The notes under the pieces: model-generated
What the model saw: only the letters and a program-made list of their open reading frames with translations
Told to the model about the DNA's origin: nothing
The model's database searches: none
Part shown: positions 18,782 through 63,110 of the stretch, one piece after another
Layout of the letters: every line of letters begins with the position of its first letter
Position numbering within the stretch: the stretch's first letter is position 1
From: a virus
Length of the DNA stretch: 63,110 bases
Virus genome (UHGV): UHGV-0363527
Reading direction: 5' to 3' (one strand)
Program-made: the position numbers and the translations under genes

Positions 18782-18789
18782 GCAAAAGA

Positions 18790-19096: not shown

Positions 19097-19327
19097 CTAG
19101 AGGAATGCGATGCGGGCAGGTTCCATACTCTCACGGTCGAGTACGAGGAGCTTGCCGTCCCGCACGTCTTTCAGCAGGGTAAGCTCCCCTACTCGAGACA
19201 GTTCTTTGTTCAAGCAACCTTGATAGCGATCGATATTACGAATGGCCTTATCAAGTTCGCGCTTGTACACGTCAGCATTACACTGAGCCTGTTTAATACG
19301 TTCTTCAATCGAAGGAACACCAAACAT
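19097..19327 (-). CDS. hypothetical protein (last gene of minus-strand block)
   Basis: 76-aa ORF. Confidence 0.4.
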   Translation of the reverse strand: MFGVPSIEERIKQAQCNADVYKRELDKAIRNIDRYQGCLNKELSRVGELTLLKDVRDGKLLVLDRESMEPARIAFL

Positions 19328-19389
19328 GTTTAGTCCTTATAAGAAGGGGGAACCGTAGCTCCCTCAAACTATCAGCTAAGCTTTAACTA

Positions 19390-30700: not shown

Positions 30701-30750
30701 GAACTTTCTAAATGAAAGTCTTGAAGGAGCACAGCTCCGGTTGTCAAGAG
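30693..30750 (-). repeat. copy B of the duplicated ~57-nt regulatory element (palindrome GGAGCTGTGCTCC between two CTTGACAA boxes)
   Basis: Aligned by eye with 18987-19042. Confidence 0.55.
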
Positions 30751-43620: not shown

Positions 43621-44093
43621 GACTGGCTCCTTGTAGTCAGTAAGTTGATCTTATGAAGGACATGATGCACATTGCTAGATTATCTTACCTGCCATATTCA
43701 GTAACAACTTCGCGGCATGGCTAGCCGGTACTGCGTAACGGTAGTGAAGCTACCTGTACTCATGTTACTTGCGTCATCCACTAGCTCTGTGTTCGACCCA
43801 AAACACAAGTTGTGTATCCGTAGTTTGTTTTGATGTGCCGACATTGAGCACAGTATCAGCAGCCATCGAGGATTCTACACCTCACTCTGATACACAAGTT
43901 TGCAAAGCGTTTACCTAACCAACAATTCATTAGCCACCCTAAGTCTACACGTTCGGTGGAGCGTACCTTGTGCGGAGGCTGCAACCTACCAGTTGCATTT
44001 GCTCTCTTGTACACGACAGTGCCTGCCTTACTCCTTTCACTTGCAACCTAGTTCCAAACAAGGCCGAGTTACCCCGGCCCTGCTTGTTATGGG

Positions 44094-44594
44094 TTACATG
44101 GGATGGGTGTTGACGAGAGGTTTGATCTTGTCCATCACATCCTTGGTCAGAATCTTGGACATGATGAACTCTTCAATGCCGGAGGCTTCACGCAGAGCGT
44201 CGACAGACGCAAGCGTGGCCGCGTCGATGGCCGTCAGGAAGTACTTGGCTTTCGGATCGTCTTCACCTACGTTCGAGACAAACGCACCGCCCATGATGGA
44301 CAGAGCCTGAGCCAAGCTGAACTTGAACAGAGCTTCGTTCAGCGGGTTGGACTTGATGAACCCGCCCATGCCCCAAGGCAGGCCGGATGCAATCACATCG
44401 GTCACGTTGTTCAGAACCAGCCGACCAGCGGCGAGCTTGGTAATAACAACACCAGCTTCCTTGGTCTTGTCGATCTGCCGGTGCATGGTGGGGGAACTGG
44501 TCACGCTCTTGGCAATACCGATGACCTTGGCACCGAAACCAACCGGCTCATGTGCCGCTTCCATGTCGAGAATGATCTCATTGTCTTTGTTCAT
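44094..44594 (-). CDS. hypothetical protein (GC-rich island)
   Basis: 166-aa ORF. Confidence 0.45.
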   Translation of the reverse strand: MNKDNEIILDMEAAHEPVGFGAKVIGIAKSVTSSPTMHRQIDKTKEAGVVITKLAAGRLVLNNVTDVIASGLPWGMGGFIKSNPLNEALFKFSLAQALSIMGGAFVSNVGEDDPKAKYFLTAIDAATLASVDALREASGIEEFIMSKILTKDVMDKIKPLVNTHPM

Positions 44595-44624
44595 GTACTA
44601 CATACCTCCGTGAGTTTCAGTGTG

Positions 44625-45710
44625 TTACTTGCTGGCCTTGGCGATCTCTTCGGAGATTTGCTTGCACTTGTTCTGCAGGGCGATGCTGCGCTTGCGCAGG
44701 TTCTGGATGCTGTTGCGCTTTTCTTCCACGGCCTTCTCGGCGCCGGACTTGATGATGGGGTCGGTGATCTTGTTGATGGTCTTTTCGCTGGCAGCGAGGG
44801 CCTTTTCACCTTCACGCAGTTCAGCTTCCACGTTGGTCAGTTCATCGGTGGCTTCAGCCAGACGCTGTTCCCGCACCTTGTTCATGCGGTCATCGTTCTT
44901 CCGCTTCTGGATGGCCTTGGTCACCACGTCACGGTGGAACTTGCAGAGGTAGCTGCCTTCCAGCTTGCGCTCATCATCGGTGATGTACTTCTGCGTGTCC
45001 TTGTCGGTGGGCAGGTGGAAGGGCTTCTGTTCAGCCACCTTGCGAAGGACACTGCCGCAACCTTCAAAGGCGCAGCGCAGCACAGGCTTCTCGGTCTTGG
45101 CATCCTTGCCGTCCTTGGTGGGCAGGAGAACAGGCGTAGCCACTTCGGGGCCGACCTTCACGGACACGGGTTCAGCGGTGGTTTCTTCCTTGGCTTCGAT
45201 CTTGTTGGGATTCTCGATGGCGTTGGCAGTGACACCGGCGGGCTTGGCCTGCGTGGAGAACCGGGGCTTGGTTTCCTTGGTGCCGTCACCCTTGGGCAGA
45301 ACACCGAGCATCTGGAGGAAAGGCTTGGAGTCAAAGGTTTTGGAAACCACAGCCTGCATGTCAGCCGTCGCGCTGTCTTCGGCGGTGCCCTTCATCTGGA
45401 ACACGCCCGCCTCGTCGCACACACGCAGGAGTTCATCGGCGGAGTCCATCGTCATGCCGAGGCCAAGGTAGTGCAGAGCTTTGCCGTGCGCGGTGTCCGG
45501 GTCAGCGAGGGACGCAGCGGTCAGCACAGCGGAGGACGTGAGCACACCCTGCAACACGGTGGGGTTGGCAAAGAGAGCTTCCTTCGCAGCCTTGCCTGCG
45601 ATGCGAGCGGTCACGAGCTTGCCAGCTTCAGCGTTGGAATCAAGGACAATTTTGAAGATGTTGCGCATGGACATAGTAGATACTCCGTTTGTTTGATGGT
45701 TGCAGTTCAT
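44625..45710 (-). CDS. hypothetical protein with central Cys2-Cys-His zinc-finger-like segment and C-terminal coiled coil
   Basis: 361 aa; CAFEGCGS...CKFH; K/E-rich heptad C-terminus. Confidence 0.45.
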   Translation of the reverse strand: MNCNHQTNGVSTMSMRNIFKIVLDSNAEAGKLVTARIAGKAAKEALFANPTVLQGVLTSSAVLTAASLADPDTAHGKALHYLGLGMTMDSADELLRVCDEAGVFQMKGTAEDSATADMQAVVSKTFDSKPFLQMLGVLPKGDGTKETKPRFSTQAKPAGVTANAIENPNKIEAKEETTAEPVSVKVGPEVATPVLLPTKDGKDAKTEKPVLRCAFEGCGSVLRKVAEQKPFHLPTDKDTQKYITDDERKLEGSYLCKFHRDVVTKAIQKRKNDDRMNKVREQRLAEATDELTNVEAELREGEKALAASEKTINKITDPIIKSGAEKAVEEKRNSIQNLRKRSIALQNKCKQISEEIAKASK

Positions 45711-45735
45711 TGTGTATATGGTACAGTAGCAGGTG

Positions 45736-46254
45736 CTACTTGCCCAGCTTGGAGATGTAGGCTACGGCATCAGCCTCAGCCTTTCCGATGTCGAGGACAG
45801 AAAAGCCGACAGACTTTACCGGGATGTCGTCGTCAGGTTGCGACAGTTCCATCCCCATGCCGGGATACTTACGCTCAGCGTACTTGGATTTACCCCGGCG
45901 TTGACGTTCACGAGCGATAGCAGCGGCTTGCGATCTGGTCTTGCCACACGCAGGACATTTGCACGTGGGGCACAGGCGTTCGTACTTATCACCAACAGGT
46001 ACGAGTTCCAGCCTGCGCTTGACACGCTCAATGATGCGAGCCTGCGGACTACCATGTCCGTAGAACTCAATCAGTTCTTCAAAGAACTTGACAATCTCGT
46101 TGTCAAGAATAGCAGAACCAACAGGTGTTCCCATAAAATGTATCTCCTTGTTGTTCATTTGTTTCTTTGTAGATGTTAAGCCAGTCTTCCACAAGTTCCA
46201 TAGCCTGCGGTCGGTCGGACTCAGCACAGAGCCCAGACCTGAGCATGAAATCAA
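45736..46254 (-). CDS. hypothetical zinc-ribbon protein
   Basis: 172 aa, CPTCKCPACG. Confidence 0.4.
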   Translation of the reverse strand: MISCSGLGSVLSPTDRRLWNLWKTGLTSTKKQMNNKEIHFMGTPVGSAILDNEIVKFFEELIEFYGHGSPQARIIERVKRRLELVPVGDKYERLCPTCKCPACGKTRSQAAAIARERQRRGKSKYAERKYPGMGMELSQPDDDIPVKSVGFSVLDIGKAEADAVAYISKLGK

Positions 46255-46309
46255 AGATAGCTTTGTAGTCTACCTCCATGTTGAAGTCCTTATGTATATG
46301 ACGCCTGAG

Positions 46310-49751: not shown

Positions 49752-50351
49752 TCAACGGAAACGCCGGGACGACCGCGTTGAGGTCATGATGTAATCGTCT
49801 TCCGTATGCACGACGACCTTAGCATGACGACTAACACGACGCCGAACCTTTTGAGGCTTATCCAGAGTCACGAGGGCGCAAGAGTATCCGTCTTGCTTGT
49901 CCATAGCCTCGCCTGTGCCCACGTTTGTAGTACGATACTTAGCGCGTGGCCGTTCACTTGTACGTACCTTGCGGATGTTGATATGCTTGCCATGCTTGCC
50001 AGTTACGGACTTGTTTTGTCCGTATTCAGCATACAAGAAAGGTACATCCGCCAGACCGGGGAGAACACGATAGCCTGTTACTTCATCAACAGGCAAATCA
50101 TTGGGATTGATAAACGCTCCCGTGATAGAGTTCTTAAAGCCTATGCACTCCCCGACCTTGTTCCATACGGGAATAAGGCGTGGTTCTTCCTTTTCCGTTT
50201 GATAGAGATTAGACAAGCCCTGATTCCTACAGATATTCAGGGCATTAGCCTGCCTCTTATAACCTTGTGGCTTATCGTGCATGGTGTTTCTCCATAGCTT
50301 GCGTTTGCTGTTCTTCAACGGCAGTTTTAAGTTGCTGAGTTTTATAAGCAA
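49752..50351 (-). CDS. hypothetical basic protein (probable start at MHDKPQ, 50282)
   Basis: 199-aa ORF; an internal Met with GGAGA RBS is more plausible. Confidence 0.4.
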   Translation of the reverse strand: MLIKLSNLKLPLKNSKRKLWRNTMHDKPQGYKRQANALNICRNQGLSNLYQTEKEEPRLIPVWNKVGECIGFKNSITGAFINPNDLPVDEVTGYRVLPGLADVPFLYAEYGQNKSVTGKHGKHINIRKVRTSERPRAKYRTTNVGTGEAMDKQDGYSCALVTLDKPQKVRRRVSRHAKVVVHTEDDYIMTSTRSSRRFR

Positions 50352-50511
50352 CGTGACCAGCCCACGCGTAAAAGTCTATGGCATGATTGCCTTTCATGAG
50401 CATATTGACATAACGTTGGGAAAGATACTTTAACATGGTAGTTCTCCTATCTTGTTAAATAACTTAAATGATTACAGGGACTTACGTATGCCCCTGTAAC
50501 GATTAAGCTAC

Positions 50512-50781
50512 TTACTTCCAGCTAAGCATACGCCTTTTCAACTTGCCCATAGGAATAGTGGCAAGTGCCTTTGCCATGAATTCCCATTCGCCATCACGTT
50601 TGATATAGAAATAAACGCGGAAAGGCTTAATGTCAGGCTCGTTGATTCGGTTCCGCGCCCAGTTATACATGAAGTCTTTATTGGTAAACAGACCGTGAAC
50701 CAGCTTAACGCTTGTCGTGGGCATACCATCTTCCAAGCGCATTCCCCAGACTTCGGCCTTGTAGACATTCTTGGCTTTCAT
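50512..50781 (-). CDS. hypothetical small protein, paralogue of 47415..47702
   Basis: 89 aa; see paralogue pattern. Confidence 0.45.
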   Translation of the reverse strand: MKAKNVYKAEVWGMRLEDGMPTTSVKLVHGLFTNKDFMYNWARNRINEPDIKPFRVYFYIKRDGEWEFMAKALATIPMGKLKRRMLSWK

Positions 50782-52640
50782 AGTAGTGCTCCTCTTGTTT
50801 AATAGTTTAGTTGGCTACAAGGGATTAACGCACCTAAGGCACCTCATTCCCTTGTAGCTGTTAAACTATTAACAGACTGAACACCTTTGCCTACTATTTA
50901 TAGTCGTTGCACTGTTCCCAACGCAGGCTGTAGCGCAGCCTTTTAACGCCAATGCTCGACGACTGTAGCCTTTCTAAAGCTACTTCAATCCGCCCTTTGA
51001 GCCGTCTTATCACATTGCTAGAGTGTAAGTCTGCAATGCCGTTTACGGTTTATCGGCAGATTATAGGCTTGCTGTAAGTAGGACTTTCCCCCGACCTACC
51101 TTGCACCTGCGCACAAGGCCCCCAGTCGGCTTGTTCCGTCCCCTTGCTTATACGTCGCACCTGTAGTTACAGGAGTATATAAGCAAGCCTCGTTTTTCTG
51201 TACATCGGAGCACTTCTTAGCTTGAACTAACAGGCAAACCGCACTCAAGGCACAATTTGCAAGGTAGCATAGACAAGCTAAGTTTTACGCACATCCAACG
51301 CAAAACCTGCAATCCGATTTTCCAAAGAGCCTTATTAAGCTCTTGGCATGATTGTAACTTGTGTATGTGCTACAATCCTAGCAGGACGACACACTAAGCT
51401 AGTGCCGTTAAGTAAATCTAGCTAACTTGAGTTAGCTTGTTGAAAGCGTTCTCTCATAAGTTTTTGCGCTTGTCAAGTACTTTTTTGCCTTTTTTCGTTG
51501 TGTCCGTGTGGCTCATTATTCCGGCTGCCGACTACTCTTTAGAATGTCGTAACACTCGCAAGCAAAGAACAGCGTTTAGCTGTTTAACGTCCGCCTATTT
51601 CTGGTGACTGGACACAAACAAGGCAAGTACTCAACAAAGACGCTATGCACTTGTGAAAGAACACGTTCATCGTTGAAATGGACTCTACAGGAGCCTTACG
51701 GCTATGTCAAGCACTTTTTCAACGCTTTTTAAAAGAACGTATAGTAGCGCTAGCTACGCTAGCTGTATCGTATGGGCTTGTGACCCGTCCGATGCCTTTT
51801 ATATAGCAAGCCGTGTGCCAAACTGTAAGTAGTTGAAATTATTAGACCCCGCTACGCGGGTAAGTTCAAGAATTTGTACCTAGTAGGCGCGCCGGCTGGT
51901 GTTTGTGGAGCTTATAGTGCACGCACATAGTGCGGAACCATAAGAACTACAGGTACTTAGATCATGGTTCAAACATTTGTACTTTTGGAGTGCATGAGTA
52001 CAATAAGTTGAACCTATGCCTAACCATGCTAAACCATTTACACTTTTGTACCATGCTTACTATAGGTAGTTGATTTAATTAACCTTTAAAAACGATTAGC
52101 TAGGTTTAGCTGCTATTGGTAACTATTAGTAGCTGTTTGTTGATAATGATTACCATTGATGGCTGGTTCTTTGGTTCTAATCCTACCCACAAGCTAGGCT
52201 ATGAACCAGTGCTAATCATACCTAACCTATTGTAATCATTGTACTTTTTAGTTGTCTATAATCATCCAACAACTACTAGGAGTAACACTTCAAACCTTAG
52301 GAGTCACACTGTGCTTTCTTTCACTAGGGGGAGAGGGAGCATCCCCTACCCGTGGGACAGAGCGGAGGCACGGGGGTACAGTTGACACAGACTTCACCCA
52401 CAAATTTACCAGCTTCGCTCGCAGCTTTAGGGGGCTGAATGACGTCATCATAATCGTTTCTATATCTCATGGTTCTATAAGTTCAGAACAAGTCTAGGAG
52501 GTATATTCACCATGCTCCTTCTCATCTTACACCATATGTCACCAACAGTAGTCAGGAGTAGCTACTAGTAACCGGCCCGGCCTCACCTACTGGTTACTTA
52601 TGCCTACCTAAACTTTTTTAACTTTTTTCGTCCAAACCCC

Positions 52641-52669
52641 TTGACAATTGAAAAAAACTGATTATCTTA
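52641..52669 (+). promoter_or_regulatory. sigma70-like promoter (TTGACA-17-TATCTT) inside the 2.3-kb noncoding region
   Basis: ccccTTGACAattgaaaaaaactgattATCTTat read directly. Confidence 0.45.
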
Positions 52670-52675
52670 TTCCAT

Positions 52676-53080
52676 AAGAATAAGAAATCACGGAGTGATT
52701 CGCAGGGTTGCTGCTGTGATTGATTGGATGATTAAATTCATGCTTCAACTCAGTTCACATGTACAGCACTGGTACTTGAGCAATACATGCTTGTTCATGT
52801 GAACACGCTTTCTTTAGGCTGTGAGCGAGCCTCAAAGCGAGCGAACTACTTAGGTAGTTTGAGTTGATTAGGACATGGGAAAATAGTATCTAACATCCAA
52901 CAGCCTGAAAGCAAACTCTCCGACTTATTGGTTACTAAGCTACGCTTTGTAGTCAATAGGGCCGAGCGCCCCTATCAAATTCTGAACATTAAAACATTAG
53001 TCTGACCAAAAGAAAAGCCCCCGTTCTACATAGGATCCATGCCTTGCATAGTACCTATAGTAGCCGGGGGCTTGTTGCGT
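52676..53080 (+). ncRNA. candidate ~400-nt noncoding transcript (promoter 52641 to terminator 53011-53085), no ORF >25 aa
   Basis: Promoter, ORF-free interval with 9-bp-stem inverted repeat GTTCACATG..CATGTGAAC and GAGCGAGC direct repeats, ending in a strong terminator. Confidence 0.3.
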
Positions 53081-53085
53081 TTATG
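53011..53085. terminator. bidirectional terminator (AAGCCCCCG ... CGGGGGCTT long stem; T-tracts on both strands) ending first early gene and the noncoding transcript
   Basis: On the minus strand the stem is followed by CTTTTCTTTTGG immediately after the stop of 53081..53974; on the plus strand by GTTGCGTTTATG. Confidence 0.5.
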
Positions 53086-53974
53086 TATCTTTCTTGTCTA
53101 TAGCTAGTCTTCTTGGTTGACTTAGAAGATGCTTACTTGCTTCTTCTTTAGTTATCTTTCTAAACATAAGATCATATTTGACCTTATTACTTGTAAAGTA
53201 TTTACTTGACACATAGTTAAGTGGTACCTTGATCAGTTCGTCTGTGTAAGCTGCCTTGACGTAAGGTGGTGTCTCAAAGCCAAGGTGAACTGTATTCATA
53301 TGTTCACGTTCTGTACCAAAAGGTTCTATGATGTTCATTTGTGCCATCTCTATGTACTCGTCTGTGTAGCCTGTATACTCAAACGTCTTGTCAAAGACTT
53401 GTTGCATATACAAAGCACCTCTACGCCAGTGTCTTGCATAGTAGTACGGATGGTTTGTTGCAGACACTTTCCATGTAAACCATGTACGCTCATGTCCGGG
53501 GAAGAAGTCAGGTGTTCGAGGTACAACTACAGCTTTAAGCTGAGGATACTCTCTAAAGACAAAGTACCTCTTCTTAGGTGCACGAGACACACGCTTAGTC
53601 ACACCAAAGCAGTCACGTGTTACTTGTGTTAATGGTCTGCTGTACGTTTTCTCTTCAACAGTAATGACTGCAAAGTCTTTAAGGTCGATACCACCTCTGT
53701 TCTTTAAACCGGTAGACAAACACCAGATCATAACGTTAACCATTCTGCTTACTTCACTTTCAGGCAGATAGTTAAAGAAGATGTTCAGGTCGTTAACAAG
53801 GTCACCTTTTGTGTACAGACCTCTGTCCCACTGTCCTTCTATTTCACATTCTGATAAACCTACCTGACACCTACAGTTAGGGATCTTGTAAGGTTCAGGT
53901 GTGTCTTCATTCAGTATGGGATTCCTCCGCCACTTTAATTTCCTACGGTCTTTTTCTATCAGCGTCGACGACAT
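53081..53974 (-). CDS. first early gene product, function unknown (anti-host / anti-defence candidate by position)
   Basis: 297-aa ORF with its own promoter (54067-54096) and terminator; isolated between noncoding regions. Confidence 0.5.
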   Translation of the reverse strand: MSSTLIEKDRRKLKWRRNPILNEDTPEPYKIPNCRCQVGLSECEIEGQWDRGLYTKGDLVNDLNIFFNYLPESEVSRMVNVMIWCLSTGLKNRGGIDLKDFAVITVEEKTYSRPLTQVTRDCFGVTKRVSRAPKKRYFVFREYPQLKAVVVPRTPDFFPGHERTWFTWKVSATNHPYYYARHWRRGALYMQQVFDKTFEYTGYTDEYIEMAQMNIIEPFGTEREHMNTVHLGFETPPYVKAAYTDELIKVPLNYVSSKYFTSNKVKYDLMFRKITKEEASKHLLSQPRRLAIDKKDT

Positions 53975-54117: not shown

Positions 54118-54840
54118 ATGGATAGTCAAATTTTACTAGGGATCGTTAACGGTCTGTCAAGCTTAGTAAAAGACGCTGACTATATATCACTTGCGATGCT
54201 GGGAGGAACTGCATTCATTATCTATGAATGTGCAACTTTATCGTCTTTTTTAAAACGTGTAGCTAAACACAAGACAAAGAAGTTTGCAAAGGATTTTCCA
54301 TCACTCATTGATATGAATAGGCGTGTTCTTACCAAGCTTAAACATGCTAAGTCTGAATTAAATGCAGACAGAGTTGCAGTTGTTCAGTTTCATAACGGGT
54401 GTCAAAACCTGTCTGGTATTGACTTTGCAAAGATGTCTTGCACACATGAAGCTGTTCGTCCCGGCCTTAAACCAGCACAGGCTGATTTCTTAAACCTGCC
54501 TGTGTCTGCTTTCTCATATCTTACTAACGCTGCTTTTGGTATAGAACCTAAAGTAATTCTGAACATCGAACGTTTGCGTAAGTTTGATATGTCTACATAT
54601 ACACTACTGAAGGCACACAAAGCTGTGTCCTTTGCTCTTACTCCTCTCATCTCTGATAACCAAGATGTCTTTGGTTTCATGGTTGTAGAGTTCTGCAAGC
54701 TTCGTGAAGACATTACTTCTGGTGACTTCCAGTTCCTTTTAAAGACATATGCAGAGAAGATAGCTACCTTGCTTGACCGCTCTGACTTAGGTGACCTTGA
54801 TGAAGAAAGACTCTATAAAGCCCCTTCTGAAGAAGCCTAG
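54118..54840 (+). CDS. hypothetical protein with N-terminal hydrophobic segment
   Basis: 240-aa ORF, first gene of right-hand + operon. Confidence 0.45.
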   Translation: MDSQILLGIVNGLSSLVKDADYISLAMLGGTAFIIYECATLSSFLKRVAKHKTKKFAKDFPSLIDMNRRVLTKLKHAKSELNADRVAVVQFHNGCQNLSGIDFAKMSCTHEAVRPGLKPAQADFLNLPVSAFSYLTNAAFGIEPKVILNIERLRKFDMSTYTLLKAHKAVSFALTPLISDNQDVFGFMVVEFCKLREDITSGDFQFLLKTYAEKIATLLDRSDLGDLDEERLYKAPSEEA

Positions 54841-55141
54841 TCCTTCTGTAGTTGTTCCTGACGGTAAGGGATGTACCAAGGGAGACGAACTTCTTCGTCG
54901 TCTTCGCTTTGAATTTGGGTACGATCCCATCAAGGAACTTGTGCATTTGGCTAGGTCTGCTAAGACCAACAGCACAGAGAAGATTAAGATCGCCTCTGAA
55001 CTGCTGAGCTACTACCAGCCGAAGATGAAAGCTATGGACTTCAATCCGAATGCTGGTGAAGTTATTAACGTTAACATCTCTTTCCCTGATGAAGAGACTG
55101 CTCCTGCGGGACTCAAGGATCTGGCGAAAGAAACTGCGTAA
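54791..55141 (+). CDS. putative terminase small subunit
   Basis: 116-aa ORF immediately upstream of terminase large subunit; assignment by position only. Confidence 0.4.
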   Translation: MTLMKKDSIKPLLKKPSPSVVVPDGKGCTKGDELLRRLRFEFGYDPIKELVHLARSAKTNSTEKIKIASELLSYYQPKMKAMDFNPNAGEVINVNISFPDEETAPAGLKDLAKETA

Positions 55142-55149
55142 GGACTGTT

Positions 55150-56565
55150 ATGGATATTGATTATCAAGTCCTGCCCACGTTTGCAAAGATTCATCGTGAC
55201 CCGAATCCTTTTCTGTTTGTGATGGGGCCAGTAGGATCTGGCAAGTCCTCTGGTTGTATCTTTCAAGCGTTCTTTAATGCTATGCGTCAGAAACCAGACG
55301 AGCATGGAGTCAGGCACAGCAGACACCTTGTTGTCCGCGCAACGTACCCGGCCCTAAAGTCAACCACCATTAAAACGTGGTTGTCATGGTTTAAAGATAA
55401 AATCACTATTACTTATTCTACCCCCATCATCGGCAGGATTAAGTATCCTTTAGCTGATGGTACGACCGTTGATATGGAAGTCGTATTCATCGCTGTCGAT
55501 GATGATAGATCTGCTGAAAAGCTTCGTTCGTTGGAAGTGACCTCTGCTCATTTGAACGAAGCATCTGAACTTACAGAAGGTACCTTTCAGCTTATCAAGA
55601 CACGCTTTAAGCGTTATCCTGCTAAGAAAGATGGCGGCCCAGTCAGACCATTTATTATACTTGACTACAACGCCGTAAGTACTGAGCACTGGTTATATCG
55701 CCTTGCAGAGGAAGACAAACCAGAAGGACATAGTTTCTATCGTCAACCTCCGGCTATGCTTAAGGTAGACGGGAAGTATGTTCTTAATCCTGAAGCAGAG
55801 AACCTTGCTAACCTTGATGAAGGTTACTATGAAACCATGTGTATGGGCGCAGACGAAGACTTTATCAACGTCAACGTGCTTAACAACTATGGTGAAGTAA
55901 AACGAGGTAAACCTGTTTATAAGGATTACAGTGATCTTGAGCACCATGTTGATGAAGAGATGGTTCCTCTTCGTGGTGTGCCTGTTGTCATAGGAATGGA
56001 CCAAGGATTGACCCCTTCTGCTGCTTTCACACAGCAAGCCCCTGATGGTACAGTTATTGTGTTTGATGAGATCTGCACAGACAACTGTTCTCTCAAAGAG
56101 TTCTGTGAAGAACATCTTTGGCCTAAGATCACATCTAAGTATCCTTGGATTGTAAATAACTTTAGAGTTGTGTGTGACCCTGCTACTTCACAGCGGTCAA
56201 TGAACGACGCTAAGTCTGGCATGGAGATATTGAAAGAATGTAATCTTCCTGTTAAGCTAGCTAAGACAAACAACTGGACTCCTCGCTTTGAAGCCGTTGC
56301 TCAGTTCCTTCGTTTGAAGGGTAAGTTCAAGCTTGGGCCTCAGTGCATAGCCTTAAGAAAAGGCTTTGTGTCTGAGTACAAGTACGCTGAGTCTAAGACT
56401 GTTAACGGTGTTCTCTATAAAGCATCTCCTGTCAAGAATGAGTTCTCTCACATTCATGATGCCTTGCAGTACGCAATGATGGAGTACGTACATAAGCGAG
56501 AGAAGAAGTTCTTGTTTAACACACAACGTAAATATCGTGCTGCTAGCCAGATTGGAGGCTACTAA
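55150..56565 (+). CDS. terL: terminase large subunit
   Basis: Walker A MGPVGSGKSS, ATPase then nuclease-like acidic motifs (VVIGMDQG, HDALQY); 471 aa; precedes portal. Confidence 0.75.
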   Translation: MDIDYQVLPTFAKIHRDPNPFLFVMGPVGSGKSSGCIFQAFFNAMRQKPDEHGVRHSRHLVVRATYPALKSTTIKTWLSWFKDKITITYSTPIIGRIKYPLADGTTVDMEVVFIAVDDDRSAEKLRSLEVTSAHLNEASELTEGTFQLIKTRFKRYPAKKDGGPVRPFIILDYNAVSTEHWLYRLAEEDKPEGHSFYRQPPAMLKVDGKYVLNPEAENLANLDEGYYETMCMGADEDFINVNVLNNYGEVKRGKPVYKDYSDLEHHVDEEMVPLRGVPVVIGMDQGLTPSAAFTQQAPDGTVIVFDEICTDNCSLKEFCEEHLWPKITSKYPWIVNNFRVVCDPATSQRSMNDAKSGMEILKECNLPVKLAKTNNWTPRFEAVAQFLRLKGKFKLGPQCIALRKGFVSEYKYAESKTVNGVLYKASPVKNEFSHIHDALQYAMMEYVHKREKKFLFNTQRKYRAASQIGGY

Positions 56566-56570
56566 AAATC

Positions 56571-58658
56571 ATGACTGAAAAAGATTTTTTCGGTTCTGGA
56601 ACTGTAATCGATTCTGTTGAAAACAAAGATGTACAGGACTTCCTGTCGGAAGTTTCTGACAGTATGCAGGTAGATGAAGATTCCGGTGCAGAAGATACCG
56701 AAGGTGCGCCTGAAACGCCTCAAGGTCTGGCTGCTTTTGTTCGTGAAGCGTTTGACCGATCGGACAGTGCACGTAAGACTATTGAAGAGAAGTGGTTGAA
56801 TGCCCTTCGTCAGTACAAAGGTATCTACTCTCCCGAAGTTCTTGAACGTATGGATCCTCTGCGTAGTAAAGCTTTTGTTCGTATGACAAGAACTAAGGTC
56901 AAGACTGTTGACAGTCGTCTGTCTGATCTGCTGTTCCCTGCGAACGGAGATAAGAACTGGGGTATTGAGCCTACGCCACTGCCACAGTTCAGTAAGACGA
57001 AAGAAGCTGCTATCCTTGAACTTGTTTCTCAGGATCAAGGTAAGCAGGTTAGCTCTGAAGAACTCTATGTTCTTATGCATGATGAAGCTAAGAAGCAAGC
57101 AGGCAAGATGTCCAAGGTTATTGAAGACCAGCTTGCTGAGTTGAAATACCGTGAGATTATGCGGGATGTTATGCATTCTGGTAATCTGTATGGTACTGGT
57201 ATCCTTAAAGGGCCTCTTGTTTCTATTTCTGAAAACCGTCAGTACTATAAGAAGGAAAAGAATGGAGACAAAGAGAAGTGGATACTCTGTGATTATGACT
57301 CCATCACGCCCTTCATCGAAAACGTCCGCATATGGGATATCTACCCGGACATGGAAGCTACTTGCCCCTCAGAATGTAGATATATCATTCAACGACGTAA
57401 GATGGATAAGCACGATGTCATCGGTCTCGGAAAGAGATCAGACTTCAATGGGGACGTAATCTCTACTTATGTTGCTGAGAATCCTGAAGGTGATTATCAG
57501 AAGAAGGACTTTGAGAACCAGCTTACCTCTATGGGTGATGTAATTGACAGCGGTGTTGCTGATGCTGCTCACTCTAAGAAGTACGAAGTGTTTGAGTTCT
57601 GGGGTTTTGTAGATGCTGATGATCTGAGTCAGGTGGGTGTTGAGATTCCTGAACGTATGCAAGGTCAGGTAGAACTGGCTGCAAACATTTGGGTACTTGG
57701 TGACCACGTTATTAAAGCGTCTCTCATGCCTATGGAAGGCGTTAAGTGGCCTTACTTCTTCTACTATTATGACAAAGACGAAACCTCTATCTTTGGTGAA
57801 GGTATTCCGTCTATCATGTCTGATGTTCAGGAGCTGATTAATAGTGCGTTCAGAGCTATGCTGGACAACGCTGCTATCTCTGCTGGCCCTCAGATTGAAG
57901 TAAACCTTGACCTTATGTCGGAAGACGAAGATCCTCGTGATGTCTATCCGTTTAAGGTATGGATGCGTACAGGTGAAGGAGCTGATGCTGCTAACCCTGC
58001 TATCCGTGTCTTCCAACTTCCTAGTTATACTACTGAATTTGAACGGATGATTGAACTCTTCCGCAGCTATGGGGATGAAGTTACTTCTATTCCTCGTCAG
58101 ATGTGGGGAGAACCTTCTGGTGCTGCCGGTCGTACTGCTTCCGGTCTGTCTATGTTGATGGGTTCTGCAAACATTACGATTAAGGATCAGGTCAAGAACT
58201 TTGATGATGGCATCACTAAGCCGTTTATTTCTGCTATGTATCACTGGAACATGAAGTTCAATAGTGATGCTGATATCAAAGGTGACTATGCTGTTCAAGC
58301 TCGTGGTACTTCATCTCTCATCGCTAAGGAAATCAGAGCACAGAGTCTGATTAACTTCGCGCAGATCACTAACAATCAGGTTGACCTTGGTACTGTTAAA
58401 CGTCCGAGCATTATTCGTTCGATCGCTGACGCCCTTGATCTTTCTGATGACAACTTGGTGTACTCTGACAAGGAGATTGAAGTTCAGAAGCAGCAAGCAC
58501 AGAAGCAAGCTCAGGAAGAACGTCAGTGGATGACCGATATGGTTGAGACTGCACGGTCTGAAGGTGTTAGTCCTGCGGCTTTGATTGACAGTCTGAAACA
58601 GCTTCGTGAAGATATGTCTCTGATTAGTCAGCCTGAACAAACGTATCCTCAGAGTTAA
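56571..58658 (+). CDS. portal protein
   Basis: 695-aa ORF between TerL and scaffold; acidic N-terminus; size and synteny. Confidence 0.65.
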   Translation: MTEKDFFGSGTVIDSVENKDVQDFLSEVSDSMQVDEDSGAEDTEGAPETPQGLAAFVREAFDRSDSARKTIEEKWLNALRQYKGIYSPEVLERMDPLRSKAFVRMTRTKVKTVDSRLSDLLFPANGDKNWGIEPTPLPQFSKTKEAAILELVSQDQGKQVSSEELYVLMHDEAKKQAGKMSKVIEDQLAELKYREIMRDVMHSGNLYGTGILKGPLVSISENRQYYKKEKNGDKEKWILCDYDSITPFIENVRIWDIYPDMEATCPSECRYIIQRRKMDKHDVIGLGKRSDFNGDVISTYVAENPEGDYQKKDFENQLTSMGDVIDSGVADAAHSKKYEVFEFWGFVDADDLSQVGVEIPERMQGQVELAANIWVLGDHVIKASLMPMEGVKWPYFFYYYDKDETSIFGEGIPSIMSDVQELINSAFRAMLDNAAISAGPQIEVNLDLMSEDEDPRDVYPFKVWMRTGEGADAANPAIRVFQLPSYTTEFERMIELFRSYGDEVTSIPRQMWGEPSGAAGRTASGLSMLMGSANITIKDQVKNFDDGITKPFISAMYHWNMKFNSDADIKGDYAVQARGTSSLIAKEIRAQSLINFAQITNNQVDLGTVKRPSIIRSIADALDLSDDNLVYSDKEIEVQKQQAQKQAQEERQWMTDMVETARSEGVSPAALIDSLKQLREDMSLISQPEQTYPQS

Positions 58659-58659
58659 T

Positions 58660-58923
58660 ATGACTGATACACCACTTAACGGTAGGCGTGTGAGTTTGGA
58701 GAAAGCCTTCAGACTCACGGCCAATGCCGATCTACAAAAAAATATAGTTGCTTACCTGAAGGTTCTTAGAAGCCAACGGTATAGTAAGTTACTAAGTCCT
58801 GATAATACAGATAACGTAGACCGACTTATCGGTGAACTACGTATGGTACAAAAGCTCTTGGATGTACTGGAACTTGGGAGCGAGCCCCTTTCGGATAACT
58901 TGCTCATGAGCCAAGCCAGTTAG
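58660..58923 (+). CDS. hypothetical small protein
   Basis: 87-aa ORF. Confidence 0.35.
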   Translation: MTDTPLNGRRVSLEKAFRLTANADLQKNIVAYLKVLRSQRYSKLLSPDNTDNVDRLIGELRMVQKLLDVLELGSEPLSDNLLMSQAS

Positions 58924-58963
58924 GACTTAGGGTATTAACCCTCCCTAACTTAGTTATAAAAAT

Positions 58964-59917
58964 ATGAACGATCAGAACAACAAAGATTTCAATGAAGCCT
59001 TCGACGAACTTGCGAAGTCTTACGAAGATCCCTCTAAGGTAGAGCCCTCGTTTGATGATTTCATGAGTGAGCCTGAAGATCCTTCCGAAGAAGAAAACGT
59101 CGTGAGCCAGAATGATGACGATGAAGTTCAGCCTGCAGAAGAACTGGAGCAAGAACAAGAAGCTCCTGTTCAGAATGAACAACAGACTACTGAGCTTCCT
59201 CTGAATTATAAAGAGCTTTATGAAAAGGCAAAGCGTGACGCTGAAGCACAGAATGCTCTGTGGGCTAGCAGACTCACAGATCTGTCTCATAAGTATCAGG
59301 AGCTCAAAGAAGCAAAGAATGCACCTGCACAGACGAAGGAAGAGCCAGATGAACTTCCTGACAATGTGAAGGAACTCTTTGAGATTCATCCTGAAATTGC
59401 TAATGCAGTGAAAGCGCTTGTTGACACTAAGGTGTCTGCTGTTAAGAAGAACGTTGAGACTGAGCTTAAGACTCGGGTTGAACCTATTCAGCAGCAGATC
59501 TTCCAGTCCGAAGCGGATAAGCATTTCAGTACTATCCGTGCTGCCCACCCCGACATCAGTGCGATTTTGGACAGTGGTGATCTCTTTACTTGGATTAACT
59601 CTCTGCCTCCTGTGATGCAGAATGGTGCTAAGTATGTGTATCAGTACGGTACGGCACAGGAAGTTATCTCTCTTCTGGACGACTACAAATCTGCTCGTGG
59701 CGTTAACAAGCCACAGATGACCAAGGCTTCTTCTCCTCAGGTGCAGACAAACCCTGCGTCTGAGACCGAAGACATTGTTAAACAAGTGCTCGCTGCTATG
59801 GCAGTTCGTACTGGCAAGGAACCTATTGATATAAACAATAAGCCTAAAGCCAAACCTCGTGAGAAGTCTTTTGATGATCTTGCTCGTGAGTATGAACGTA
59901 GCAGAAGGACGCGCTAA
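58964..59917 (+). CDS. scaffolding protein
   Basis: 317 aa, highly acidic E/D/Q-rich coiled-coil, located between portal and major capsid. Confidence 0.6.
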   Translation: MNDQNNKDFNEAFDELAKSYEDPSKVEPSFDDFMSEPEDPSEEENVVSQNDDDEVQPAEELEQEQEAPVQNEQQTTELPLNYKELYEKAKRDAEAQNALWASRLTDLSHKYQELKEAKNAPAQTKEEPDELPDNVKELFEIHPEIANAVKALVDTKVSAVKKNVETELKTRVEPIQQQIFQSEADKHFSTIRAAHPDISAILDSGDLFTWINSLPPVMQNGAKYVYQYGTAQEVISLLDDYKSARGVNKPQMTKASSPQVQTNPASETEDIVKQVLAAMAVRTGKEPIDINNKPKAKPREKSFDDLAREYERSRRTR

Positions 59918-59947
59918 ACTCGTTTTTGAAACTAGGAATTATATCTA

Positions 59948-60985
59948 ATGGCTACTCCGAATACTATTATGCATACTGGTGCTACCAGTTCTTCTACTGA
60001 TGGTACTCTCAGCACGATGGCTAATGTCTATGTCGTTGCTAAGATGCTCATCCGTGCTCTTCCTTACCTCGTGTTTGAAAAGTTTGGTCAGGCTTATCCT
60101 CTGCCGACCAAGAGCACGAAGACCGCTAAGTTCCGTCGCTTTGAATCTCTTGATGCCACGCCGAAGGAACTGACCGAAGGCGTTACGCCTACTGCTCAGA
60201 CCTTCTCGGTTACCGACATTGAAGCCACTGTGCATCAGTATGGTAACCTCGTGACCATGACCGACGTTCTGCTCGATACTAACGACTCCCCTGTTATGGA
60301 ACAGGTTACGCAGATCGTGGGTGAACAGGCTGCGGAAACTGTTGAAAACATGCGTATCGGTGTTCTGCTTGGCGGTTCCAACGTTGAGTATGCGAATGGT
60401 GAAGCCCGTGGTGACGTGAACACGCCTATCACTCTGCCTCTGCAGCGTCGTATTACGCGTAAGCTGAAGAACCAGAAGGCTCGCTTCCTGACCGATAGCA
60501 TTAAGTCCACGCCTCGTTTCTACACTGAATCCATCTCTCCCTGCTTCGTGGCTGTCTGCCATCCCGACTGTGAAGCTGACATCCGTTCGATGCCTCACTT
60601 CCAAGACGTGAAGGACTACGGCAACACGTCTCCGTGGGAAAATGAAATCGGCGCTGTTGAAGGCGTGCGTTACCTCTTCACCACTCTGATGAAGAGCTGG
60701 CCGGATGCTGGTGGTACTAAGACGAATGCTGCTGGTGACACGATGGTTTCTACCTCCGGTACCAAGGCTGACGTTTATCCCATCCTCTTCCTTGCGAAGG
60801 ATGCCTATGGTCTGGTGCCCCTGAAGGGTGCTGAGTCCCTGACTCCGGTGATCATCAATCCTTCTCATACTGAATCTGACCCGCTCGCTCAGCGTGCCCA
60901 CGTTGCTTGGAAGACCATGCAGACCTGCGTGATTCTCAATCAGGCTTGGATGGTTCGCGCTGAAGTCGCTTGCACCGACTACTAA
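59948..60985 (+). CDS. major capsid protein
   Basis: 345-aa ORF after the scaffold, strong RBS, followed by a strong terminator-like hairpin. Confidence 0.65.
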   Translation: MATPNTIMHTGATSSSTDGTLSTMANVYVVAKMLIRALPYLVFEKFGQAYPLPTKSTKTAKFRRFESLDATPKELTEGVTPTAQTFSVTDIEATVHQYGNLVTMTDVLLDTNDSPVMEQVTQIVGEQAAETVENMRIGVLLGGSNVEYANGEARGDVNTPITLPLQRRITRKLKNQKARFLTDSIKSTPRFYTESISPCFVAVCHPDCEADIRSMPHFQDVKDYGNTSPWENEIGAVEGVRYLFTTLMKSWPDAGGTKTNAAGDTMVSTSGTKADVYPILFLAKDAYGLVPLKGAESLTPVIINPSHTESDPLAQRAHVAWKTMQTCVILNQAWMVRAEVACTDY

Positions 60986-60998
60986 GCCTTGTCCATAT

Positions 60999-61037
60999 GG
61001 GGAGAACAACTACTCTTGGGGGTTCTCCCCTTTCTCG
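60999..61037 (+). terminator. rho-independent terminator after major capsid gene
   Basis: GGGGAGAACaactactcttggGGGTTCTCCCCtttctcg. Confidence 0.6.
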
Positions 61038-61091
61038 TATCTAGCTCTGCTACACCTAGCTCTACAAACTAAATTTTAAGGTATATTCTTT

Positions 61092-61670
61092 ATGGCTAAC
61101 ATTCCTGTTTTTACTGACACCGATCTCAACTCTGCTTCTGACATGCAGGTTCGGGATATGCTTTTTGAACGTGGTCTGCACATTCCGTTGACGGAAGACA
61201 ATAAGCTTATTCGTAAGCACGCTATTCGACTGTTGATGGACTGGAGACAGGATCACGCTAGTATGAACGAGAATGCACGTAAGTGTCGGGTTATCTTTCA
61301 TACGTCTTCTAATCCTTCTGCTGGCCCTTATGTGTATGCTTCTGTGAACAGTAAGAACTTCCAAGCTCCTTATGGCAAGGAAGTAATTGTTCCTGAGTAC
61401 ATGCTCCGTGAATGCATTGACCGTGCGTACACTACGTCTTATCAGACGCAGCAGGATGAATTCGGTCGGCAGTCTACTGTTGAAGTTCACATTCCTACGT
61501 ATCCCTATACGTTTCTCGGCTATGTTGAGGAACAGGTTGATGGAACGGAAGAAGTGGTTCCCACTCCTGAACAAGTTGGTAAGATGGAAGCTGACGCTCT
61601 TGACGTTCAGCTGGTGATGCCAGTAAAGCGTGGACCCGGTCGTCCGCGTAAGAATTCTGTCAATGTTTAA
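61092..61670 (+). CDS. hypothetical head-associated protein with C-terminal GRP (AT-hook-like) tail
   Basis: 192 aa; ends KRGPGRPRKNSVNV. Confidence 0.45.
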   Translation: MANIPVFTDTDLNSASDMQVRDMLFERGLHIPLTEDNKLIRKHAIRLLMDWRQDHASMNENARKCRVIFHTSSNPSAGPYVYASVNSKNFQAPYGKEVIVPEYMLRECIDRAYTTSYQTQQDEFGRQSTVEVHIPTYPYTFLGYVEEQVDGTEEVVPTPEQVGKMEADALDVQLVMPVKRGPGRPRKNSVNV

Positions 61671-61685
61671 CTAATAAGGATTAAC

Positions 61686-62348
61686 ATGTCTATAGACACT
61701 GTTAAGCTTCTTTATGGTGATGTAGATAATACTCGATTCACGAATGCTCAGTACACTGCTTTTAGAACTAATGCTCTTCACTATTTGTACGTTCTTCGCC
61801 CTGACTTGTTTTGTAAGTCTGTGAGTGTACCGCTTACTAAAGATGCTGCAGGATTGTCTACAGTCAGTGTGCCTACAGGAACTGACTTCATTAAGTTTAA
61901 AGGTCTTATTAAAGATACAGAAAATACCTTCCCTAGGCTAGTGGATTACATTGAAGCTGTTGCTAAGTATCCTACTTGGGGTAGGGAGACAGGTGCTACT
62001 ATTCATGACATTACTGAATACACTGTAGATATCCTTGATAGACTTACGTCTCTGTACTTTGATAAGTTTGTTCCTGACGTACAGGCTGTGCTTGAAGTAA
62101 GTGATCCGTCTTTGACGATTACGGTATCTCCTTGGCTTGATGAAGCCCTTGACAAGTACGTTCTGTACTTGGCTTATTCTTCTGACAGTACTTCTCAGCA
62201 AGACCAAATGCTTGCTCAGCAGTACCTGCAAGAGTTCACGACTATGGTGTCTATGCAACGTCCTATGACGATGCAGGATAAGTCTCCGTATCCTATGCAG
62301 ACACTTGCACGACAGGCTGGTACTCCTGCACAAGGAGGTTCTGAATGA
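61686..62348 (+). CDS. hypothetical structural protein (head completion/adaptor candidate)
   Basis: 220-aa ORF. Confidence 0.45.
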   Translation: MSIDTVKLLYGDVDNTRFTNAQYTAFRTNALHYLYVLRPDLFCKSVSVPLTKDAAGLSTVSVPTGTDFIKFKGLIKDTENTFPRLVDYIEAVAKYPTWGRETGATIHDITEYTVDILDRLTSLYFDKFVPDVQAVLEVSDPSLTITVSPWLDEALDKYVLYLAYSSDSTSQQDQMLAQQYLQEFTTMVSMQRPMTMQDKSPYPMQTLARQAGTPAQGGSE

Positions 62349-63085: not shown

Positions 63086-63110
63086 TCTTCTAACTATATT
63101 GGGTACAAAA

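Follow-up and report, generated by a model that had tools for sequence, protein, structure and literature searches.

The put RNAs of phage HK022 are cis-acting processive antiterminators of ~70 nt, built from two stem-loops, which make RNA polymerase resistant to terminators. At the left end of T7-type genomes, several strong host-polymerase promoters are followed by a non-coding leader with RNase III hairpins before the first gene. GOLLD and ROOL are roughly 600–800 nt in size. These large "ornate" RNAs are often carried by phages, form Rfam families and have been studied by cryo-EM (PMC12286853). Candidate structured RNAs from phages and human microbiomes have also been catalogued in bulk (PMC10690425, PMC8040213), and those of the phage catalogue average 67 nt.

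Here we describe a ~465-nt folded RNA from an uncultured human-gut podophage of ~63 kb, in whose early control region it is encoded. It is previously undescribed and is the predicted main product of this region. As with GOLLD and ROOL, it is large, phage-encoded and rich in helices, with strong covariation and conserved unpaired stretches. However, it is shorter (~465 nt), cmscan finds no sequence or structure match to them, and it is not near tRNAs (a search of the whole window found none). Moreover, it is fused to the early operon as a leader instead of forming a separate gene, and it occurs in one lineage only. The likeness to put RNAs is one of position: the RNA lies just downstream of the early promoters and in the early-gene transcript, whichever gene follows, with P1 and P2 (see below) 0.2–0.45 kb upstream on the same strand and no ORF between. 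In contrast to put, it is ~6 times larger with at least 12 helices, and no strong terminators needing suppression are seen downstream. T7-type left ends share the clustered host-type promoters, the extended non-coding sequence that precedes the first early ORF and a long irregular hairpin beside the first ribosome-binding site, whereas the present leader is far longer (0.65–1.2 kb) and has a conserved multi-domain fold. In addition, this phage differs in having operator-like dyads and a terminase ≤38% identical to that of any cultured phage, that is, only distantly related; DNA similarity searches against cultured phages found none. The catalogues likewise used IMG/VR and human gut metagenomes as sources and intergenic covariation as approach. 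Fragments of this RNA may be listed unnamed in PMC10690425 or PMC8040213, and strings from it are absent from the first 200 of the 408 supplementary files of PMC8040213.

An early control region without protein genes

The window, that is, the whole 63,110-nt stretch of DNA analysed, contains one interval (50782–53080) in which the longest ORF is ≤81 aa in any frame and ≤53 aa on the minus (coding) strand. Among gene-free stretches in the window, this 2.3-kb interval ranks far ahead of the next two (608 nt at 18782–19389, then 350 nt). The ORF-free gap reported by the initial annotation is therefore real and the largest in the genome. It is also kept among relatives: its length is 2.2 kb in L036, 2.3 kb in L075 and 2.5 kb in L071, even where the flanking protein has only 60% identity, and the order of its modules is unchanged in L075 and L071. 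The G+C content is 0.41, vs ~0.45 elsewhere. The following elements were delineated.

50471..50781, minus strand: 89-aa gene with a trailing hairpin, from alignments.
51265..50797, minus strand: conserved structured RNA of ~465 nt with many helices, from fold and covariation; its parts are a 5′ hairpin, a 5′ domain (~51190..51060), a central domain (51065..50900) and a long 3′ hairpin (50876..50797).
51266..51444, minus strand: variable 5′ part of the leader, made up of hairpins, from alignment.
51445..51485, minus strand: P2, AAAAAGTACTTGACA, with a −35-like hexamer at 51476..51471, from a pattern scan (repeat family D2).
51542..51584, minus strand: covarying hairpins T1 (51584..51568) and H2 (51557..51542), in the predicted P1 transcript.
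51682..51719, minus strand: P1, an A-tract, TTGACA (51710..51705), 17 nt and TAGAGT (51687..51682), scoring 10/12 in the promoter scan.
51864..52013: three 16-bp dyads GTWCAA-N4-TTGWAC, namely O1 (51864–51879), O2 (51967–51982) and O3 (51998–52013).
52262..52590, minus strand: conserved module C, running from a GC-rich boundary GAGGCCGGGCCGG through a 21-nt motif GATTATGATGACGTCATTCAG (52458..52437) to C-rich hairpins (52400..52325) with repeated ACTCCT words.
52590..53005, plus strand: hypervariable cassette with at least three unrelated alleles and a putative plus-strand RNA of ~370–400 nt; its promoter, TTGACA (52641–52646), 16 nt and TATCTT (52663–52668), points towards the terminator hairpin.
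53005..53075, minus strand: intrinsic terminator of the 297-aa gene (53081–53974, minus), from sequence; GCCCCCG (53017–53023) pairs with CGGGGGC (53065–53071) and encloses an inner hairpin.

It is very improbable that the interval hides protein-coding genes as small, frameshifted or recoded ORFs. Several open stretches of 30–80 codons are present in the window, and a plus-strand mini-ORF of 18 codons starting at 52513 has a Shine–Dalgarno sequence and an ATG. However, this mini-ORF differs in frame and product among relatives, and no stretch of at least 25 codons in the interval stays in frame and stop-free in all 7 relatives. Gene callers placed no gene over the matching 2.3–2.5 kb of the relatives' contigs, and the conserved blocks contain single-base indels in alignments with relatives. 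Stop-codon recoding was rejected as the cause of the missing ORFs, as reassignment of TGA, TAG or TAA opens ≤136 codons and no long frame. With no reading frame surviving comparison with relatives, no conserved protein-coding gene was found here. The interval is an early control region without a protein gene, and its description as conserved non-coding DNA with promoters and repeated words of the protein-binding type is supported.

Pfam and PHROG searches of the flanking early proteins, including the 297-aa neighbour, returned nothing, and the predicted structure of the 297-aa protein was unusable (pLDDT 42.6). A role of the giant 2328-aa protein as virion RNA polymerase, from which promoters other than sigma70 ones would follow, was considered and rejected, since Pfam gives an LPD38 domain only and a DxDGD-type motif is absent.

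A conserved multi-domain RNA before the first early ORF

The minus strand is the early-gene sense and bears the well-conserved sigma70-type P1 and the promoter-like P2. In 23 sequences the hexamers of P1 are invariant and its spacer is variable, and L071 has a better site at the equivalent place (TTGACA-17-TATAGT after an A-tract). Judged by these hexamers, transcription from P1 would start near 51675. P2 repeats the upstream half of P1, is invariant in the same number of sequences and is followed, likewise as P1, by TTTCAAC. It lacks a good −10 at 16–18 nt, and its promoter activity is a prediction from this resemblance. Between the two, T1 is followed by CTTTGCTTGC; it resembles a weak terminator and also appeared in the terminator scan, and T1 and H2 together hold most of the 10 compensatory pairs of their module. 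The part from 51266 to 51444 occurs in two allelic forms, and a further insert of 150–250 nt is present at ~51428 in some relatives.

The ~465 nt that precede the first early ORF (51265..50797) fold into an RNA of several domains whose structure is conserved. Its minimum free energy is −176 kcal/mol (z = −6.4), and covarying pairs number 25 of 129 in an alignment of 11 sequences and 44 of 119 in one of 30. The central domain carries the clearest signal: among 25 distinct sequences, 98.9% of cells are paired, 27 of its 46 pairs show compensatory double changes, and all 9 helices contain at least one covarying pair. This level was reached by 0 of 500 shuffles, and slid controls gave 29–48%. Moreover, five central-domain pairs are dominated by G-U, and hence only the minus strand fits. 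The divergent L071 copy is detected by the covariance model with 50 bits (E ~2e-9). The 5′ segment GGCUUGCUUAUA can form two mutually exclusive pairings, both 97% paired, with 3 covarying pairs in the distal helix and 1 in the proximal. Long and invariant unpaired stretches (CGAUAAACCGU, CGGCUCAAAGG and GUUAAAAGG) lie among the helices. The bulk of the covariation is supplied by the clades of L036, L067, L075 and L071; because the family is confined to one phage lineage, it derives from few independent events. Thus the long structured 5′ leader suspected upstream of the first minus-strand gene proved to be present, with heavy covariation, and became our main finding.

No Rfam 15 covariance model matched anywhere in the window at gathering thresholds. 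Within 50782–53080, none matched even at E ≤ 5, including GOLLD, ROOL, OLE, raiA, RNase P, tmRNA, 6S, group I/II introns and riboswitches. The same search on the relative L005 gave two weak matches at chance level, of which one, inside the gap, was to a eukaryotic microRNA and the other, at the terminator edge, to a snoRNA family. The initial annotation had pointed to Rfam and to comparative alignment: the former yielded no family, but the latter yielded covarying stems, chiefly in the minus-strand leader RNA. Pattern scans for distant copies gave 12 contigs and no new lineage in viral sequences, 23 additional loci, all from this lineage of human-gut phages, plus a chance match (L059) in metagenomes, and a chance match (L070) only in genomes. 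The three scans placed the RNA in no other lineage and no other context. ERR13731085 and SRR34068999 are among the metagenome and Logan runs from which L049–L068, L071 and L075 derive. Terminase relatives with 60–78% identity (L037–L042) gave no match to the RNA model, and several of these loci may stop short of the region.

The long 3′ hairpin stops immediately 5′ of the ribosome-binding site GGAG (50795..50792), and the ATG follows at 50781. An expression platform of the riboswitch type was not found: the stretch from the RNA to the ORF has no terminator, and the ribosome-binding site is outside the consensus structure and unsequestered. A riboswitch or gene-specific leader would be followed by a constant class of gene; here at least four different sequences follow the same 3′ end of the RNA. 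In other words, the RNA is INDEPENDENCE from the downstream gene, with at least four distinct junction sequences beyond one RNA end. The 89-aa gene that follows it in the window is an insertion limited to this genome and is absent in the 7 relatives aligned across the junction, and in at least four genomes (L001, L035, L036 and L071) the RNA is followed by the MHDKP-type gene (49752–50282 here). The position of the RNA is therefore constant while the first ORF behind it differs among relatives.

Dyads, module C and the plus-strand cassette

Upstream of P1 and P2, GTWCAA-N4-TTGWAC has exactly three matches in 63 kb, all at 51864–52013. The sites are nearly invariant among relatives; at the matching place, L071 has a perfect GTACAA-N4-TTGTAC and one GTACAA-N4-TTGAAC. 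O2 and O3 together form a larger palindrome. The sites have mixed orientation, one being inverted, with start-to-start spacings of 31 and 103 bp, and the dyad module matches itself on the opposite strand. TTGAAC in O1 and O2 has no good −10 at 16–18 nt, and thus the canonical promoter spacing is absent. Several conserved ~16-bp dyads restricted to the control region are what a repressor-type operator cluster looks like, and by sequence these dyads, just upstream of P1/P2, are operator-like.

These dyads also explain the word TTTGTAC(T/C), which had been reported in four copies and read as an iteron. The copies at 51873, 51976 and 52045 are exact, but 52238 reads ATTGTACT. Window-wide, the 8-mer occurs 8 times vs 5.6 expected; it is not enriched and is significant only as half of the 16-bp dyad. 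TAATCAT (12 vs 8.1 expected) is not enriched either. Iteron origins have tandem direct repeats of 17–22 bp in one orientation with helical phasing; here there are three dyad sites, and the words are not in tandem.

Module C is conserved as far as L036 and L071. The hairpins described as G-rich at 52325–52400 are present, and their stems are nearly invariant in 21 sequences. The TGACGTCA palindrome at 52440 is instead an accident specific to the window, as most relatives have GATGCAGTCA or GATGAAGTCA. Only 3 of 34 predicted pairs of module C covary, too little variation to judge whether it is a second covarying RNA; in one hairpin, the G-U variants fit the minus strand only. In L007, a 39-nt unit that includes the 21-nt motif is repeated 2.3 times.

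The repeats raise the question of whether the interval acts mainly as DNA, either as a replication origin, in which repeats are initiator sites and transcripts are primers, and/or as a packaging site with genome ends or terminal repeats. The three clustered 16-bp repeats in two orientations recall terminase-binding R sites or initiator boxes. The copy number of the 39-nt unit is variable, two IMG/VR contigs end inside module C, and the G+C content is slightly lower (0.41). In addition, the head of the early genes is a fitting position, as in phages whose early end enters first. However, a role as DNA leaves the compensatory changes and the G-U strand asymmetry over ~465 nt unexplained, and the repeats are dyads and not phased direct iterons. 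The window has no terminal overlap and no exact repeat of at least 30 nt. Contig ends were judged unreliable as evidence of genome termini, because loci from the pattern scans are cut at storage boundaries, and true contig ends cluster at further variable sites in the same sample as well, so that they are probably assembly breaks. We therefore consider a mainly DNA-level role rather unlikely for the interval as a whole; it could still hold for 52600–51860 alongside the RNA.

Beyond module C, the sigma70-like promoter at 52641–52668 was confirmed (10/12 in the scan). Allele B1 of the cassette is found in the window, L003 and L008 only. Allele B2 is found in 17 genomes with ~99% identity and has TTGACA-17-TATACT at the same place, and the cassette of L071 has TTGACA-16-TATACC. 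Retention of the promoter position in the three allele types examined favours transcription of a plus-strand RNA. The hairpin at its end is conserved in all relatives with a variable inner loop, and is strong, as the initial annotation stated, but only weakly bidirectional. On the minus strand, the G+C-rich hairpin 53071..53017 is followed by the T-run TTTTCTTTT, as expected of an intrinsic terminator, whereas the plus-strand tail CTTGTTGCGTTT is T-poor and weak. Since the T-run is on the minus strand, the hairpin mainly terminates the 297-aa gene.

Hence, the ~400-nt plus-strand non-coding RNA predicted from the 52641 promoter to the hairpin at 53017–53071 stands in part. It could be the key product of the region, which we hold to be possible although less than probable. 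Besides the promoter match and the constant place of TTGACA in three unrelated alleles, the stretch has no conserved ORF and folds well (z = −6.2). However, the complement of a structured region would also give a good fold z-score, the transcribed sequence is swapped wholesale between relatives, and the T-run of the hairpin is on the opposite strand. Covariation is uninformative here, with 3 sequences for B1 and ~99% identity in B2. Moreover, such an RNA could coexist with the minus-strand leader RNA as a second, minor product.

Possible action of the leader RNA

We favour an early control region whose minus-strand leader functions at the RNA level, most likely on the early transcript that carries it; this reading is somewhat better than even, and a free-standing RNA is nearly as likely. 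Upon infection, host RNA polymerase would start at P1/P2, and with such a start the ~465-nt RNA would be the first phage product. Its target in cis may then be the early transcript or the polymerase transcribing it, and it may act by read-through, stabilisation or defined processing, with the long 3′ hairpin beside the ribosome-binding site as a candidate processing site. The dyads are predicted binding sites for a phage regulator that would shut or tune early transcription. The 52641 promoter of the exchangeable cassette probably also yields a convergent RNA on the plus strand. Against a cis-acting leader, the early operon lacks strong intrinsic terminators that would call for antitermination. 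Furthermore, the size of the RNA and its many invariant unpaired stretches exceed the needs of known cis antitermination or processing elements, and fit a free-standing RNA or an RNA–protein particle equally well.

Tentatively, then, the ~465-nt RNA may be cut from the early transcript and act in trans, alone or with a protein. The RNA might serve as a decoy for a host factor or defence system, or inhibit one, or it might self-assemble as an "ornate" RNA resembling GOLLD and ROOL; the leader position would serve only early production. In keeping with this, the RNA is large with many helices and long invariant unpaired stretches, the first ORF differs among relatives, the ribosome-binding site is unsequestered without an expression platform, and the long terminal hairpin could mark a cleavage site. 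However, the RNA lacks both a promoter and a terminator of its own and is in every case joined, in the same orientation, to the early operon. It is also restricted to this lineage and context, and is unlike GOLLD, ROOL or any other Rfam family.

A bolder reading, which we regard as doubtful, is that the locus represents a new class of large phage non-coding RNA, the first product of infection and active as RNA, while the plus-strand cassette encodes a second, strain-specific RNA. In such a case, the large RNA might capture or disable a host protein (for example RNA polymerase, a ribonuclease or a sensor of a defence system), or it might have ribozyme activity or assemble by itself into a particle, and the cassette RNA would serve, for example, in competition between phage strains.

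It is rare to find a large folded RNA without a known role, and every such find, as with GOLLD, ROOL, OLE and raiA, has started a line of work. The leader RNA adds one with unusually clean comparative support and a defined strand. Its covariance model and alignments are directly usable for transcript searches in gut metatranscriptomes and for the design of probing or cryo-EM experiments. Its position is telling, as it should be the first RNA transcribed from a widespread human-gut phage. Moreover, the locus is a concrete case, open to testing, in which ~4% of a phage genome is devoted to non-coding control: beside promoters and operator-like sites, it comprises a conserved leader RNA and an RNA cassette that can be swapped.

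The gene-free gap and its phage

The gap at 50782-53080 is a conserved non-coding region, and no other gene-free stretch of the genome is as long. The initial annotation had described it as free of ORFs, and this description held: the longest frame on the coding strand has 53 aa, and the longest of all (81 aa) lies on the non-coding strand. With any one stop codon treated as sense, the longest frame is no more than 136 codons, and no stop-free stretch of at least 25 codons stays in frame and stop-free in all seven aligned relatives. Single-base indels occur inside conserved blocks of the gap. Gene callers leave the matching place empty in the distant relatives L036 (2.2 kb), L075 (2.3 kb) and L071 (2.5 kb), the last of which is the most divergent, with a homologue of the flanking 297-aa protein only 60% identical to that of the window. 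The second-largest gap has 608 nt (18782-19389) and separates the converging ends of the plus-strand and minus-strand gene blocks.

Because the 89-aa gene at the left edge of the gap (50512-50781) is missing from seven of the seven relatives aligned across the junction, it is an insertion in the window, and the junction sequences of the 30-sequence set agree with this. The gene-free stretch is therefore even longer in relatives. A hairpin trails the gene (both together span 50471-50781), its product has no Pfam or PHROG match, and the gene looks like a recent acquisition that separates the leader RNA from what is usually the first early gene.

The phage genome is complete at ~63 kb, with the following layout:

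54118-63110, continuing 1-18781, plus strand: packaging and structural gene block
55150-56565, within the plus-strand block: terminase
56571-58658, within the plus-strand block: portal
53974 down to 19390, minus strand: early and replication gene block

The minus-strand block encodes a DnaB-type helicase, a split family-A DNA polymerase, a ligase and a thymidylate synthase. No DNA similarity to cultured phages was found, and none of these has a terminase with more than 38% identity. Relatives are metagenome contigs of 61-63 kb, from human gut wherever the record names a source; precomputed Pfam hits on their genes include portal, adaptor and capsid folds of the SU10 type, and this by sequence places the phage in an uncultured podophage lineage.

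Elsewhere in the genome, the two parts of the minus-strand DNA polymerase, exonuclease with N-terminal polymerase (32281-33408) and C-terminal polymerase (30744-31640), flank an HNH endonuclease gene (31657-32250); a second, similar HNH gene occupies 26893-27411, and an Rfam search of the window detected no group I intron. Close to the C-terminus of a 2328-aa protein of the structural block (11325-18311) is an LPD38 ("large polyvalent protein") domain; Pfam matches nothing else in this protein, and it lacks a DxDGD polymerase motif. An island at 44000-46300 is rich in G+C (0.55-0.58 vs ~0.45 elsewhere) and has long overlapping ORFs on both strands, including a 361-aa minus-strand ORF with no PHROG or Pfam match.

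The minus-strand structured RNA and its leader

Folding and covariation together show a minus-strand RNA structure of ~465 nt (51265..50797), directly before the first early ORF:

~50797, minus strand: 3' end of the RNA
50795..50792, minus strand: ribosome-binding site
50781, minus strand: ATG

A structured 5' leader had been proposed upstream of the first minus gene, and the comparisons bear this out. As RNA, minus strand 51260-50790 folds to -176 kcal/mol (z = -6.4 against shuffles), and covariation on this strand is extensive. The best-conserved block of the gap, 51225-50812, has 90-97% identity, and compensatory changes are plainly visible in its alignment. RNAalifold predicted 129 pairs from 11 sequences, 25 of them with double changes; with 30 distinct sequences from three sub-lineages it predicted 119 pairs, of which 44 had double changes and very few were broken, these compensatory changes representing a handful of independent events in a family known from one lineage only.

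A covariance model built on 167 positions and 46 pairs of the central domain (51065..50900) recovered the L071 copy over its full length (50 bits, E ~2e-9). Among the 25 distinct sequences obtained with this model, standard pairs fill 98.9% of cells, both sides change in 27 of the 46 pairs, and none of the nine helices is without a covarying pair. On all five measures the real alignment exceeded each of 500 column shuffles. When 3' partners were slid by 1-3 columns, pairing fell to 29-48% and covarying pairs to at most 8, a control that protects only partly against the bias of MAFFT and model-fitted alignments toward structure. Since five pairs of this domain are G-U in nearly every sequence, and the opposite strand would have A-C mismatches in their place, the RNA is assigned to the minus strand, in the same sense as the early genes.

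In the 5' domain 16 of 33 pairs covary. Its closing helix is ambiguous, for GGCUUGCUUAUA has a nearby and a distant possible partner, both 97% paired, with one and three covarying pairs, respectively. At the 3' end, L071 has by eye a long hairpin of unrelated sequence directly before the ribosome-binding site. At least four different sequences follow the same RNA end among relatives, and the RNA is therefore not tied to one downstream gene. The Rfam search proposed in the initial annotation found no known family in the gap and no match to the RNA, even with hits up to E = 5 included.

Two elements precede the RNA:

51710..51705, minus strand: TTGACA of P1, with an A-tract before it and 17 nt and TAGAGT after it; best promoter of the region
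51476..51471, minus strand: P2, an invariant -35-like hexamer that repeats the upstream half of P1

P1 is a well-conserved predicted promoter of host type: across 23 sequences the two hexamers never change, the spacer between them does so freely, and L071 has TTGACA-17-TATAGT at the matching position. P2 lacks a proper -10, so that its activity as a promoter is only inferred. About 90 nt downstream of the putative P1 start are two small, strongly covarying hairpins; one of them, 51584..51568, has a U-rich tract after it and resembles a weak terminator. From P2 to the conserved RNA the leader is made up of hairpins, with two allelic versions among the sequences. In L003, L005, L006, L007 and L008 (~12440-12690 of L005), 150-250 nt are additionally inserted directly after P2 (~51428); the paired-looking arms of this insert differ between copies, and an Rfam search of L005 gave no match to it. 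GTTCTTT occurs three times around P1 (51738, 51657 and 51569, minus strand). The invariant GUUCUUUCACAAG just after the P1 start (51657..51645) is complementary to the invariant CUUAUGAGAGAAC at P2 (51459..51447), ~200 nt downstream, and as neither side varies there is no covariation signal either way.

Dyads, module C and the variable cassette

Four TTTGTAC(T/C) copies had been read as iterons in the gap; only three are exact, and TTTGTACY is not enriched (8 copies vs 5.6 expected). Seen from the minus strand, every copy makes up one half of a 16-bp dyad, GTWCAA-N4-TTGWAC, to which the window has exactly three matches:

51864-51879: dyad
51967-51982: dyad
51998-52013: dyad

They form a cluster that is unique in the genome. 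The dyads are nearly invariant among relatives, L071 has one perfect GTACAA-N4-TTGTAC and one GTACAA-N4-TTGAAC at the same place, and the whole module self-matches on the opposite strand. Being symmetric, oriented both ways and spaced 31 and 103 bp apart, the dyads fit binding sites of a dimeric regulator better than origin iterons.

Module C (52590-52262) is conserved out to L036 and L071. The G-rich nested stems noted at 52325-52400 are present as hairpins, C-rich on the minus strand; as RNA structure they are plausible, because stems are nearly invariant while loops vary. G-U variants in one hairpin are compatible with the minus strand only. The TGACGTCA palindrome (52440) is not conserved in most relatives, and TAATCAT words are not enriched window-wide. 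TGACGTCA lies within a deeply conserved 21-nt motif (52437-52458), part of a 39-nt unit, GATTATGATGCAGAGTCTACACCAAATCTCATTACATTC, found in 1-3 tandem copies among relatives (L007 11436-11526). Two IMG/VR contigs (of L002 and L004) end near this unit, at about window 52428 and 52374. A DNA-level role of 52600-51860, as origin, packaging site or genome ends, is possible, although it cannot account for covariation; neither a terminal overlap nor a long repeat was found in the window.

The segment 53005-52590 is hypervariable, with at least three unrelated versions. That of the window, B1, is common only to L003 and L008. An unrelated version, B2 (L001 10929-11350), occurs in 17 genomes with ~99% identity, against differences of 10-20% in their flanks, suggesting that it was exchanged recently. 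The cassette of the L036 clade matches neither, and that of L071 (1760-2290) is a further, repeat-rich version with dense CTAAGAC and CCTATAG repeats. In the three allele types compared (B1, B2 and that of L071), a TTGACA promoter with a reasonable -10 lies at the same end, toward the hairpin 53017-53071; this constant position makes plus-strand transcription of the cassette likely. Of the ~400-nt RNA proposed from a promoter at 52641, the promoter position and a good predicted fold (z = -6.2) stand. Three B1 sequences give only 4 double changes in 130 pairs, the common allele B2 is too uniform for such a comparison, and the T-run of the hairpin is on the other strand. The proposed strong bidirectional terminator at 53011-53085 thus exists as a hairpin that mainly terminates the minus-strand 297-aa gene (53081-53974). 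This gene has its own divergent promoter and terminator; homologues of its protein, six clusters among 5.8 billion proteins, all belong to this phage lineage, neither Pfam nor PHROG matches it, and its predicted structure has pLDDT 42.6, too low for a usable model.

A possible role and known systems

On infection, host polymerase may start at P1, perhaps also at P2 and other sites, and would make a leader of 0.65-1.2 kb ending in the structured RNA. The RNA would then most likely affect the transcript that carries it, or the polymerase, by way of read-through, stability or a defined processing step at the terminal hairpin, and a phage regulator would later bind the dyads. A free-standing, trans-acting RNA is almost as likely: its size and invariant unpaired stretches exceed the needs of known leader elements, and no strong terminators that would require antitermination were seen downstream.

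GOLLD and ROOL, large phage-borne RNAs (PMC12286853), are closest in kind, and put antiterminator RNAs and T7-type early leaders are closest in position; none is a known homologue, as the Rfam search gave no match to GOLLD or ROOL and the put RNAs resemble it in position only. Fragments of the RNA may be listed in large catalogues of candidate structured RNAs compiled from the same data sources. Candidates of the phage catalogue (PMC10690425) have a mean length of 67 nt, and the first 200 of the 408 supplementary files of PMC8040213 show no trace of the RNA. The structured RNA is judged to be a new family of large RNAs, and its fusion to a leader is unusual.
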